Of a stretch of DNA of 64,000 nucleotides, positions 28,204 to 43,178 are shown in pieces; the first letter of the stretch is position 1, and every line of letters begins with the position of its first letter. Both the position numbers and the translations under genes were made by a program. The stretch comes from a virus (Duplodnaviria; Caudoviricetes), in IMG/VR virus record IMGVR_UViG_3300034127_000005, positions 34,293-98,292 of that record. One strand, written 5' to 3'. Below the pieces are notes generated by a model. That model was given only the letters and a program-made list of their open reading frames with translations. It searched no databases and was not told the DNA's origin.

Positions 28204-28231
28204 TTGACAGCAGGTGAAAGCCTGCTACAAT
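28204..28231 (+). promoter_or_regulatory. sigma70-type promoter with hairpin spacer
   Basis: TTGACA-N16-TACAAT; spacer folds AGCAGGT-GAAA-GCCTGCT. Confidence 0.8.
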
Positions 28232-28264
28232 GACCACATCAACGAATACAAAGGAGGATTCAAA

Positions 28265-28879
28265 GTGACTCAAATTTCTATTACTCGGGCCTTGGCTCAG
28301 GTTAAATCGCTGAACGATCGTATCGCTCGTGGCAGCAACGCAAACTTCATCACTACGCTGACAGGCGGCAAGCACGGTACTGGCGTGAGCGAGCAGGAAG
28401 CTGCTGCAATCATGGTATCGAACCTGCAATCCGTACAAGGTCTGATCGCACAGCGAACTGCACTGAAGTCGGCTATCGTCAAGAGCAACGCTCTGGCTAC
28501 CGTTTCGATCAACGAAGTTGTTATGACTGTCGCTGAAGCCATCGAGCGTAAGGGTTCCATTCAGTTGGAACAAGTGCTTCTGCAAAACTTGCGACAGCAA
28601 CTGGCTGCTGCAACCCAACAAGTTGAACGGACCAACGTCCAAGTAAACCAACGACTGGATCAACTGATTCAGACTACTGTCGGAAAAGACCGCAAGGTTG
28701 ATGAAGCTGAAGTAGCTGCCATCCGTGACCCATTCCTGAAGTCCAACGAAGCCAAGCTTCTGGACTCCAACAAGCTTCAAGGTGTGATCGACAAGCTTCA
28801 AGCAAGCATCGAAGGCTTCCTTCTGGAAGTTGACTACGCTCTGTCGGAAGTGAACGCCACTACTAAAATTACCCTGTAA
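28265..28879 (+). CDS. 204-aa helical coiled-coil protein (possibly DIP1984/DUF6847-like)
   Basis: GTG 28265 with SD AAGGAGGA; motifs ISITRAL, LKSAIVKSNA, MTVAEAIERK, EVDYALSEVNATTKI; highly biased codons. Confidence 0.75.
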   Translation: MTQISITRALAQVKSLNDRIARGSNANFITTLTGGKHGTGVSEQEAAAIMVSNLQSVQGLIAQRTALKSAIVKSNALATVSINEVVMTVAEAIERKGSIQLEQVLLQNLRQQLAAATQQVERTNVQVNQRLDQLIQTTVGKDRKVDEAEVAAIRDPFLKSNEAKLLDSNKLQGVIDKLQASIEGFLLEVDYALSEVNATTKITL

Positions 28880-28887
28880 CAAGGGTA

Positions 28888-29182
28888 TTCTGTAGCGATG
28901 AGTTGTCTAAATTCAGTGGGGCACCAGCCATACGCCCTAAGTATGGCTACCATAATTGGATAATTAAACGACATTCTCAGTCTTTTATACGGGGTTCAAA
29001 TCCCCGATAAGCTTGCATTGACTACGAACAAAGTTTAACTACTAAAGATTATGGCTTAAGGCTCAACAATGAACCTTTTAAATATGCAACAACGAAAGCC
29101 GAAAGATCATCGAATCTTGGATTATGGTTTCGTGGAGTTCACTGAGCATCCCTAATGACGCCCCAAGCTGTCGTCTACAGAA
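28888..29182 (+). ncRNA. Putative structured ncRNA (~295 nt)
   Basis: Ends pair (TTCTGTAG-CGA / TCG-T-CTACAGAA); hairpin AGCCATAC/GTATGGCT; T-loop CGGGG-TTCAAAT-CCCCG; phased 7-8-nt repeats; no credible ORF; terminator follows. Confidence 0.7.
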
Positions 29183-29188
29183 GCACTT

Positions 29189-29211
29189 AGCCCGCCATGA
29201 GCGGGCTTTTT
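29189..29211 (+). terminator. Intrinsic terminator
   Basis: AGCCCGC-CATGA-GCGGGCT-TTTT. Confidence 0.85.
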
Positions 29212-29238
29212 GCTGCCTAAAATATGTGAATATGGCAC

Positions 29239-29266
29239 TTGACACGCACTGGAAACGGTGTAGAAT
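29239..29266 (+). promoter_or_regulatory. sigma70-type promoter
   Basis: TTGACA-N16-TAGAAT; spacer hairpin GCACTG-GAAA-CGGTGT. Confidence 0.8.
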
Positions 29267-29296: not shown

Positions 29297-29482
29297 ATGA
29301 AGATTCCAGCAGCCATTCTAGCTTTCGTCATGACCATGCTTTTGTTCTTCCTAATGGGCGCCTTCGTTGGCAACAGCTTCAACATCAGTGATTGGAGTCA
29401 CGACGGACGGTTTATGTGCATGATGTTAGGGTTCGTTATTGGTTGTGTAGCAGCCGGGTTCACTTATCAGGAGGTAAAGTGA
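29297..29482 (+). CDS. Small two-TM membrane protein
   Basis: Two hydrophobic segments; SD ggag. Confidence 0.65.
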   Translation: MKIPAAILAFVMTMLLFFLMGAFVGNSFNISDWSHDGRFMCMMLGFVIGCVAAGFTYQEVK

Positions 29483-41581: not shown

Positions 41582-42138
41582 GACCAACTAAAGAGCAACT
41601 GATGAGCATGCCTAACGGTACAGCGGTTCGTGTCCTCTCCGACATGCTGAACAAGTATGAAGAGGGAGACATCATCTTCCGACTGAAAAATCCCGAGGAT
41701 GATTACGATTCGTGTAAATTTACTAATGAGTTTGGAGTGGAAAACTTCATGCAGGCTCAGGAAGTCGAGCTGATCGAAGAGCATCGTGTCTGTGGCACTA
41801 TCGCACGGCCTGTACTTGAAGAGCGTAAGGTTGGCAAGATCGCAATCGAACTTTTTGATGAAGGCTTCCCGAATGCTGTAATGGCTATCGGTGAAGTGAT
41901 GACATGGGCTGCCGAGAACAAAGGCTACAAACCTCATGACTGGAAGAACCTTCCAAACCCTGATACTGCCTTCCTCGCTGCTGGCTCTCGACACCGCATG
42001 AAGCGTCACATTCAACGTGCCGATGGTGTCAATCATATTGATTGTGTAGACGAAGAGTCCAACCTGTTGCACTTGGCACACGAAGCCTTCAATGTGTTGG
42101 CTCAGCTTGAGCTGGTAATCACAAATCGTATTCAATAA
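41578..42138 (+). CDS. dATP/dGTP diphosphohydrolase domain protein (DUF5664-like)
   Basis: VMTWAA..KGY..DWK..AAGSRH..DEESNLLHLAH motif. Confidence 0.7.
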   Translation: MRPTKEQLMSMPNGTAVRVLSDMLNKYEEGDIIFRLKNPEDDYDSCKFTNEFGVENFMQAQEVELIEEHRVCGTIARPVLEERKVGKIAIELFDEGFPNAVMAIGEVMTWAAENKGYKPHDWKNLPNPDTAFLAAGSRHRMKRHIQRADGVNHIDCVDEESNLLHLAHEAFNVLAQLELVITNRIQ

Positions 42139-42141
42139 GGC

Positions 42142-42187
42142 TTGACGTGAATCTGGATGTGGAGTAGAATTACTCCCATCCAATCAC
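42142..42187 (+). promoter_or_regulatory. sigma70-type promoter inside a long hairpin
   Basis: TTGACG-N17-TAGAAT; TGGATG.GGAGTA-GAAT-TACTCC.CATCCA. Confidence 0.75.
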
Positions 42188-42203
42188 ATAAGGAGGTAAT
42201 GTC

Positions 42204-43178
42204 GTGTCCGCAATAGATTTCACATCTGGGATTACAGCGAAAATCATAGCCTATTCACGGGCTCCAAACGGACAATTGATCGTCACGTTTGAAATCGAAT
42301 ATCAACGGTTCATCCACGGTGAACTAATGACCCATCGTCTTTTCAGTCGCAACGCTGCAAGCTCTCGGGCTATCCCTGTTGCAACAATCATCAAACAAGT
42401 GCGGGATAACCCCGCGACACCGATTCATTGGGGTAAAAACCAATCTGGCATGCAAGCCAAAGAACAACTGAAAGGCAATAGCCTATATGATGTTCAAGAG
42501 TTGTGGCTTGAAGCTGCATGGCGTGCTGCTCACGTAGCTGAACTTATGAGCGAAGAAGGCTGCCACAAACAAGTGGCTAACCGCATTCTTGAACCATTCC
42601 AATGGATGAAGACCGTAGTTACAGCGACGTGCTTTGAGAATTGGTTCTGGCTTCGTGACCATGCTGACGCACAACCTGAAATTCGTGCATTGGCTGTTGC
42701 CATGCTTGAGCAACTTGATTCGCACACTCCGTCTGACTTGAAGCCGGGTGAGTGGCATGTTCCGTATGTCGAGACAACTAAAGACTTTGCTGGTAAGATC
42801 ATGTATGTTGGTGAGTCTACCAAAGACGATCCACTTGCAGTGCCTGATGTTGACACAGACCGTTACATGCGAATCTACACACTTGAAGAAGCTCTGGCTA
42901 TCTCTTCTAGCTGCTGTGCCCAAGTGAGTTACCGTAAGCTGGATGATACACTTGAAAAGGCTCAGATGGTGTACAAGCGCCTCGTGGACAGTGAACCTGT
43001 GCATGCCTCACCATTCGAACACCAAGCAACTCCAATGAAACGTAATGCTGACTTCCGAAACAAGGGAATCACACACAAAGATCGTGCTGGTCACTTCTGG
43101 AGCGGTAACTTTATCGGATGGATTCAGCACCGTCAACTCATTCAAAATAACGTAGCTCCACGCCGTAAGGGGAAATAA
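42204..43178 (+). CDS. thyX: Flavin-dependent thymidylate synthase
   Basis: ELMTHRLFSRNAASSRA motif; HKQVANRILEP; HASPFEH. Confidence 0.9.
   Translation: MSAIDFTSGITAKIIAYSRAPNGQLIVTFEIEYQRFIHGELMTHRLFSRNAASSRAIPVATIIKQVRDNPATPIHWGKNQSGMQAKEQLKGNSLYDVQELWLEAAWRAAHVAELMSEEGCHKQVANRILEPFQWMKTVVTATCFENWFWLRDHADAQPEIRALAVAMLEQLDSHTPSDLKPGEWHVPYVETTKDFAGKIMYVGESTKDDPLAVPDVDTDRYMRIYTLEEALAISSSCCAQVSYRKLDDTLEKAQMVYKRLVDSEPVHASPFEHQATPMKRNADFRNKGITHKDRAGHFWSGNFIGWIQHRQLIQNNVAPRRKGK

Follow-up and report, generated by a model that had tools for sequence, protein, structure and literature searches.

RNAs with Repeated Motifs and Structured Phage RNAs

TRAP (MtrB) and HutP exemplify the proteins that recognize short RNA motifs repeated at a regular spacing. 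TRAP, whose small beta-sandwich subunits assemble into a ring of 11 or 12 copies, recognizes 11 (G/U)AG triplets with a spacing of about 5 nt in the trp leader of Bacillus, while HutP, a hexameric protein, recognizes UAG repeats with a 7-nt spacing in the hut mRNA. The locus described here lies in a 64,000-nt stretch of viral DNA (the window) from a virulent Pseudomonas phage of the Otagovirus/Flaumdravirus kind, whose nearest public relatives are Milchi, Astolliot, phiK7A1, VCM, KIL1, and PE09. It consists of a gene for a 204-residue helical protein followed by an RNA that contains an array of A-leading heptads. As in the TRAP and HutP systems, where the number of motifs matches the protein oligomer, the motifs are short, regularly spaced, and apparently unpaired. 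The likeness ends there. Instead of about 11 (G/U)AG triplets placed 2–3 nt apart, the array holds 12 copies of the 7-nt unit AAagnUY, and the 204-residue protein has no match in Pfam, its AF2 model being a helical bundle and not a beta-sandwich ring. The 7-nt period is common to HutP and to this array, but the conserved positions are A1, A2, and U6 rather than UAG motifs separated by 4 nt, and the protein has no match to the HutP family. Furthermore, the array is predicted to be a closed loop of a pseudoknotted RNA situated 3' of its own gene, unlike the terminator-controlling leaders bound by those proteins.

Other ncRNAs also hold many copies of one short motif. However, those of CsrB/RsmZ and CrcZ are GGA or A-rich CA motifs, found in hairpin loops or at irregular spacing and in variable number, and their partner is a global regulator of the host, whereas the array described here has a fixed phase, count (12), and length, and its linked partner is encoded by the phage.

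A third group of comparable RNAs comprises ROOL, GOLLD, skipping-rope, and drum, which are complex conserved phage RNAs with a terminator, often located near tRNAs and next to a particular neighbouring gene (PMC5737381); none of them has been described with a heptad array. The YrlA/Y RNAs associated with Ro60 (Rsr) are likewise modular ncRNAs that adjoin the gene of their partner and hold a tRNA-like module, but the partner here falls outside the TROVE/Ro proteins, a tRNA-like part is missing from many members of the family, and YrlA has no repeat array. Type III toxin-antitoxin systems differ as well, since their ToxI-like repeats of about 34–45 nt lie beside a ToxN/AbiQ gene, while the repeats here are of 7 nt and the neighbouring gene product has no Pfam match.

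Scans of the window and 50 related loci with Rfam 15, run at gathering and relaxed thresholds and including the models for tRNA, tmRNA, YrlA, ROOL, GOLLD, and RAGATH-27, gave no match over the RNA at the gathering threshold; the matches recovered were nested or adjacent tRNAs and one sub-threshold YrlA. ARAGORN found no tRNA or tmRNA in the window, where the only element of this kind is an isolated T-arm-like hairpin (Table 1), and full-text searches of the literature returned no description of a heptad-repeat phage RNA or of an ncRNA at this locus in T5. The RNA is uncatalogued, having no Rfam model, and the protein has no Pfam or PDB match.

Organization of the Locus

The protein gene and the RNA form a unit delimited by a promoter and an intrinsic terminator, whose features are collected in Table 1. 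No other promoter-like site was found on the + strand between this promoter and position 29239, and none between the gene and the RNA. The gap that follows the gene in the window comprises about 330 nt with no conserved ORF, and the array is located in the middle of it. Directly 5' of helix P1, a hairpin spans the stop codon of the gene. By eye, the alignments place a hairpin at the same stop-codon site in the relatives, with unrelated sequences, and this element may serve for processing or act as a leaky terminator.

Immediately past the terminator, a second near-consensus promoter (TTGACA-16-TAGAAT, 29239–29266) drives a gene for a hydrophobic protein of 61 residues (29297–29482) with a weak DUF2157-like match. 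This order of promoter and 61-residue gene recurs, by eye, in two close relatives (L006 and L008).

Table 1. Coordinates of the protein gene, the RNA, and their associated elements in the window.
Feature	Position	Strand	Remarks
Sigma-70-type promoter	28204–28231	+	TTGACA-16-TACAAT, TG-extended; 11/12 consensus matches; serves the protein-plus-RNA unit
Shine-Dalgarno of the 204-aa gene	28250–28257	+	AAAGGAGG; strong
Gene of the 204-aa helical protein	28265–28879	+	GTG start; homologues of 203–210 aa start at the same place
Hairpin across the stop codon	28870–28887	+	Directly 5' of P1
Structured ncRNA core	28888–29182	+	295 nt, bounded by the two strands of P1; single-sequence fold z = -3.98
P1	28888–28898 with 29171–29182	+	One bulged U; 12/14 pairs change on both sides
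P2	28902–28907 with 29154–29159	+	7/7 pairs change on both sides
P5	28913–28918 (UCAGUG) with 29140–29145 (CACUGA)	+	From the unbiased column-pair scan; 87% paired, covariation 0.94
H-type pseudoknot	28919–28948	+	S1, 28919–28922 with 28934–28937; S2, 28926–28933 with 28941–28948
T-arm-like hairpin	28990–29006	+	5-bp stem, UUCAAAU loop; in the variable region; close relatives only
Heptad array	29023–29108	+	12 units, the first UACGAAC (29023–29029); consensus A-A-a-g-n-U-Y; no conserved internal pairing
Conserved linker and P3 5' strand	29109–29120	+	Linker AUCGAAU
P3	29116–29120 (CUUGG) with 29163–29167	+	98% paired; 4/5 pairs change on both sides
3' strands of the core	29154–29182	+	P2 (29154–29159), P3 (29163–29167), conserved CUG, P1 (29171–29182)
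Intrinsic terminator	29189–29212	+	7-bp stem with 6 G-C pairs, then a U run; closes the unit

A Conserved Pseudoknotted RNA Surrounds the Array

The original prediction had placed the heptad tract inside an ncRNA, and the helices conserved around it bear this out. Helices P1, P2, and P3 were assessed for covariation on a MAFFT alignment of 45 sequences against 500 shuffles and slid controls. Paired cells amount to 87%, compared to 57% in the shuffles, and the covariation score reaches 0.754, a value attained by none of the 500 shuffles, whose score is 0.226, while the slid controls stay at or below 0.20. Altogether, 23 of the 26 pairs of these helices have changed on both sides. The locus therefore shows the compensatory changes, beyond those of shuffled and slid controls, that are expected of a conserved structured ncRNA. 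The individual helices are variable in sequence, with P1 ranging from 7 to 19 bp and built from many different sequences among the relatives, and P3 represented by more than 14 different sequence pairs. An unbiased scan of all column pairs recovered P1, P2, and P3 and added P5. Because P2 and P3 cross, the core is pseudoknotted, and upstream of the array there is, in addition, an H-type pseudoknot whose two stems (S1 and S2) differ in sequence but keep their complementarity in all groups, as judged by eye in the alignments. The pairs are frequently G-U, as in column 20 of P1, where 41 of the 45 sequences hold one; the constraint therefore acts on the + strand as RNA.

The region between the pseudoknot and the array is variable among the relatives. 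At the site of the T-arm-like hairpin, other phages hold different hairpins or a whole tRNA. One homologous RNA (L057, about 1856–2223) has a complete tRNA-Thr nested in its variable region (1938–2014), and another (L059, 1897–1960) holds there a YrlA-like tRNA module that stays below threshold, with 43.9 bits against a cut-off of 69.

Twelve Heptads of Fixed Phase and Length

The tract was originally described as eleven units at 29030–29108, of which nine are of 7 nt, two of 8 nt, and ten begin with AA. These 79 bases read exactly as described, although the total does not hold, as the array begins one unit earlier with a weak first unit, and the window therefore contains 12 units and not 11. 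In the window alone, the starts of A runs show their strongest period at 7.2 nt, and 111 of 2000 dinucleotide shuffles reach the same power (p ~0.055), a borderline result, so that the window by itself would not justify a claim of phasing.

The case for the phasing is comparative. Relatives were gathered as 18 loci from annotated phages and IMG/VR, identified by DNA or protein similarity, and 80 more obtained through a protein-profile search. Every homologous gene is followed on its 3' side by a gap of 380–460 nt, and an nhmmer profile of the gap finds its match downstream of the gene even at about 35% protein identity. Among 81 distinct downstream regions, with protein identities from 33 to 100%, the strongest A-periodicity within the range of 4–16 nt falls at 6.9–7.7 nt in 74, compared to 8 of 81 shuffles and 10 of 81 upstream regions. 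The absence of a 7-nt period from homologous loci had been named in advance as an outcome that would overturn the original prediction, and the period proved to be conserved. Autocorrelation peaks appear at lags 7, 14, and 21 for AA, UU, GG, and CC, and in a MAFFT alignment of distant phages the units line up, with invariant A columns 7 nt apart. AT-rich and GC-rich relatives have far cleaner arrays than the window, such as the one that reads AAAGUUC AAAGGUG AAAGCUA AAAUCUC, and so on (L046), or AGGACUC AGGACUG AGGACUC AGGUUUC (L063).

The units of 68 distinct tracts were parsed with an iteratively trained PWM and a chain parse, which gave the consensus A (0.90), A (0.80), A/C, G (0.55), N, U (0.81), Y (0.78). 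Exactly 12 units were found in 42 of the 68 tracts. In those tracts with more than 12 that were read, a lineage-specific hairpin inserted at units 6–7 had been parsed as extra units, while counts below 12 look like parse failures. In the 12-unit set, the array measures 85–90 nt (median 86), and unit 1 and the P3 helix stay 92–99 nt apart despite protein identities down to 34%. The 12-unit array is present in phages of Pseudomonas, enterobacteria, Vibrio, Bacillus, Lactococcus, and Clostridioides, and the T5-like phage DaisyDussoix has 12 units too. The units are not uniform along the array, with units 1, 2, 5, and 12 fitting the consensus best, units 8, 10, and 11 being the most degenerate, and spacings of 8 and 9 nt concentrated at units 7–9.

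Pairing Within the Array

The array had also been proposed to be a single-stranded loop. This part of the proposal stands as far as conservation is concerned and receives little help from thermodynamics. The unbiased column-pair scan revealed no conserved helix inside the array, and no covarying or conserved pairing of array columns was found, either internally or with other conserved columns. Pairing between units, in registers from -2 to +2, exceeds permuted controls by at most about 0.3 of 7 positions and reaches at most 4 canonical pairs out of 7. A pairing between units 6 and 8 (AAGG with CCUU), suspected by eye, was not conserved.

Thermodynamic folding, on the other hand, predicts substantial pairing within the tract. 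In partition functions, the unpaired probability is 0.44 in the array compared to 0.37 outside, and it is higher inside in 39 of the 45 sequences, a difference that makes folding a weak discriminator. Since folding does not clearly mark the tract, the term single-stranded rests on the absence of conserved or covarying pairing, and the array is best described as unpaired by the evolutionary criterion and not by thermodynamic prediction. Judged from the alignments, the tract forms the unpaired loop at the centre of a phage ncRNA of about 295 nt that is conserved and contains more than one pseudoknot.

The Upstream Protein

The 204-residue protein belongs to phrog_1491 (E = 2e-64 over the full length). 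The label of this family, tail fiber protein, is a mislabel that nothing here supports: the gene has its own promoter, its neighbours are tRNA genes and genes of the early or replication kind, and the structure searches gave no fibre-like fold. The same unsupported name appears in many public records. The AF2 model (mean pLDDT 88) is an elongated helical bundle of five helices plus short strands. No Pfam family matched the protein at E <=0.01, with weak DUF6847 matches in 11 of 22 members, and no relatives in the PDB were detected by sequence or profile. Further searches (Foldseek against the PDB, VIA-align wide, and the ESM Atlas) returned a generic helical-bundle likeness and unnamed phage clusters only, and BFVD contributed only uncharacterised phage homologues. 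Neither the family nor the fold searches revealed a recognisable RNA-binding fold or family.

By tblastn, the protein was found in 745 phage records, including 441 T5-like genomes that hold the gene and the gap at >=90% identity. Other carriers include the Bacillus phages G, BCP01, and Kioshi, Cronobacter GAP31, Klebsiella KB57, Lactococcus 949, and phages of Vibrio, as well as jumbo phages of Erwinia. An RNA is annotated at the locus in no record examined, and some carry spurious ORFs in the gap or a split gene. In Milchi (L001), the gene is split into two CDS (1522–2114) and a minus-strand ORF is annotated inside the RNA (2314–2421), and in Bitten (L013, 732–1820) a long CDS has been called over the gene on the opposite strand. 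The only longer relative (P0121), with 421 residues, comes from one contig of 1465 nt and is fused to GATase and NAD-synthase domains. It is probably a gene-calling fusion or a read-through from an upstream amidotransferase-like gene, which precedes the unit in Milchi as well.

Linkage of the Gene and the RNA

The protein and the RNA lead to each other from either side. In the protein-side search, the RNA was found just downstream and on the same strand in every homologue examined. The converse search used a pattern of RNA elements only and listed 80 matches, mostly due to chance; among them, the protein gene was located upstream in 20 of the 20 that had P3 complementarity or a 7-nt signal plus family features, and in none of the chance matches.

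Transcripts of a relative that is about 90% identical are present in a soil metatranscriptome (X14), with contigs covering the gene. One of these contigs runs from the 3' end of the gene into the RNA and stops at ~29181 beside adaptor sequence. These contigs lend weak support to the co-transcription of the gene and the RNA, and to an RNA 3' end at the end of P1; the parts left uncovered in runs X14 and X24 are not informative. In a wastewater cDNA run (X9), short contigs over 28957–29099, comprising the hairpin and units 1–10, have a depth of 25,000–85,000 compared to ~135 in the flanks, with adaptors at 28993 and 29090. The sister run X8 has no such excess, which may correspond to a protected RNA fragment or to a PCR jackpot; because it was not reproduced in X8, it is not counted as evidence.

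Association with tRNA Genes

Genes for tRNAs are found within 1.2 kb in 34 of 60 loci, all of them on the same strand as the unit. In three loci, a tRNA begins 6–13 nt past P1 (L076, 2128; L029, 2148; L044, 2176), and tRNA-processing enzymes may therefore define the ends of the RNA there. This points to RNase P as the enzyme that sets the RNA 3' end wherever a terminator is lacking. The frequent position of the unit in same-strand tRNA clusters, together with the nested and abutting tRNAs, points loosely to tRNA or translation biology, or to its defence.

In the T5-like phage SP15, the system corresponds to ORF83 and the gap at 41821–42262, 2.3 kb from the last gene of the tRNA-rich region. 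The tRNA-rich regions of T5-like phages hold anti-defence genes, and the anti-retron genes of the T5 group include Rad (ORF75, 189 residues, Toprim-like) and the Ec83 blockers (ORF71-73) (bioRxiv 10.1101/2023.03.15.532788). The system is none of these published genes and has no link to them, as ORF83 and its gap lie several kb from ORF71-73 and ORF75.

Other structured RNAs occur beside some of the loci. A skipping-rope RNA is found just upstream of the protein gene in two of them (L071:851-938 and L081:851-938, with 63 and 61 bits), and a drum RNA (47.7 bits) is found downstream in a third one (L079:2601-2708). Both are orphan motifs tied to particular neighbouring genes (PMC5737381).

A Putative Docking Track and Its Alternatives

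A phased single consensus, a count of 12, a fixed contour length, and the lack of conserved pairing argue for reading the array as a track for identical subunits, and the heptads are probably a ruler-like docking track for the upstream protein, which is the candidate ligand because it is the sole partner that is universally co-inherited. By analogy with TRAP, we infer that this protein is the ligand, that one unit serves one subunit, and that the assembly closes into a ring or an arc. In the proposed mechanism, the RNA would be transcribed from the promoter of the preceding gene, and its compact core, formed by P1, P2, P3, P5, and the 5' H-type pseudoknot, would hold the 12-unit loop at both ends. 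Each heptad would constitute a weak sequence-specific site for one protein subunit, or for half of a dimer, and the RNA would in this manner act as the template for a closed particle of defined stoichiometry, with about 12 subunits, in the way of TRAP on its 11 triplets. That the array offers one weak site per unit to the subunits of the co-encoded protein and templates such a TRAP-like particle seems to us an evenly balanced proposition.

The original prediction had already drawn the comparison with TRAP, and its idea of one unit per subunit is consistent with the fixed unit count and array length. At about 4–4.5 Å per nucleotide, 7 nt extend over approximately 30 Å, near the width of a helical bundle. 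The sites would not be equivalent, given the degeneracy of units 8, 10, and 11 and the spacings of 8–9 nt at units 7–9. Counting against this mechanism, a loop of fixed length would suit an RNA-only architecture or a different ligand just as well. A more specific version, in which the 12 heptads would nucleate and count exactly 12 copies (or six dimers) of a protein of novel fold into a closed RNP ring that takes part in the handling of tRNA or translation, or in anti-defence, is put forward only tentatively.

The ligand could be another one. In this unlikely but not negligible case, the heptad loop would be a decoy or sponge for a host RNA-binding protein, a nuclease, or another phage protein, while the upstream protein would act on the core as a chaperone, stabiliser, or effector. 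CsrB/RsmZ and CrcZ are established multi-site sponge RNAs, and the location in or near tRNA-rich regions that hold anti-defence genes in T5-like phages, with tRNAs at 34 of 60 loci, would suit such a function. However, the array spans phages of six host groups, so that a shared host ligand would need to be universal; the only invariably co-inherited partner is a phage protein; and the consensus does not fit the motifs of CsrA (GGA), Hfq (ARN triplets), or TRAP.

It is rather unlikely that the repeats go unread by the upstream protein and that the periodic A and U residues instead make tertiary or RNA-RNA contacts, for instance in homo-oligomers. The elaborate core, with four long-range helices and a pseudoknot, the strictly conserved length of the loop, and the pairing that thermodynamic models allow in the tract would all be compatible with an RNA-only element, and ROOL, GOLLD, and OLE are known to form RNA-only multimers. 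Contrary to this expectation, the array columns have no covarying or conserved pairing, and a short consensus present in twelve copies is more to be expected of repeated protein sites than of tertiary contacts.

An operator in the 3'-UTR, on which excess protein would polymerise and thereby regulate how stable its own mRNA is or how well it is translated, in the manner of gp32, RegA, and TRAP on their targets and without forming a particle that has a function of its own, is improbable. The gene and the RNA apparently belong to one transcript, and T4 gp32 autoregulates by cooperative binding to a periodic unstructured RNA with about 7 nt per monomer, but about 750 nt separate the array from the ribosome-binding site on its 5' side, and the array is part of a self-contained domain with paired ends that abuts or contains tRNAs in other phages, which suggests its excision as a stable RNA.

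That the repeats act as DNA, whether as iterons, an origin, or a promoter, or that they reflect chance or coding, is very improbable and already largely refuted: the authors of KIL1 annotated a promoter inside the homologous gap and the single-sequence statistic is borderline, but the signal is strand-specific and surrounded by helices with G-U pairs, a -10-like hexamer near TTGACT is seen by eye in the alignments of the window and two relatives and is absent from others, a spacing of 7 bp does not keep to one face of B-DNA, no ORF is, by eye, shared (the 28-codon frame of the window has 21 codons in Milchi and is broken by an indel in phiK7A1), and chance is excluded by the comparative periodicity (74 of 81 regions against 8 of 81 shuffles).

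Several other candidates were considered and rejected because of their poor fit to the PWM or to the host range, namely the RNase E site consensus, anticodon- or T-loop mimicry, the motifs of CsrA, Hfq, S1, and cold-shock proteins, and DGR template repeats.

Implications for the Biology of T5-Like and Other Phages

The system sits in a gap, apparently empty, that follows a mislabelled gene in at least 745 sequenced phages, and among its carriers are the Tequintavirus (T5) group and phages of Pseudomonas, Salmonella, Klebsiella, Vibrio, Bacillus, and Lactococcus. Its recognition corrects the widely propagated annotation of the gene product as a tail fiber protein. If the proposed assembly is true, the RNA and the protein would each represent a new family and would assemble in a new, sequence-periodic mode, and an RNA that sets how many copies of a protein enter an assembly could provide synthetic biology with a scaffold. 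The hypothesis is directly testable, as phages of the T5 group that grow on E. coli K-12 carry the system. Should the ring reading hold, a particle that has so far gone unrecognised would be present in the T5 group and in hundreds of further virulent phages that carry tRNAs.
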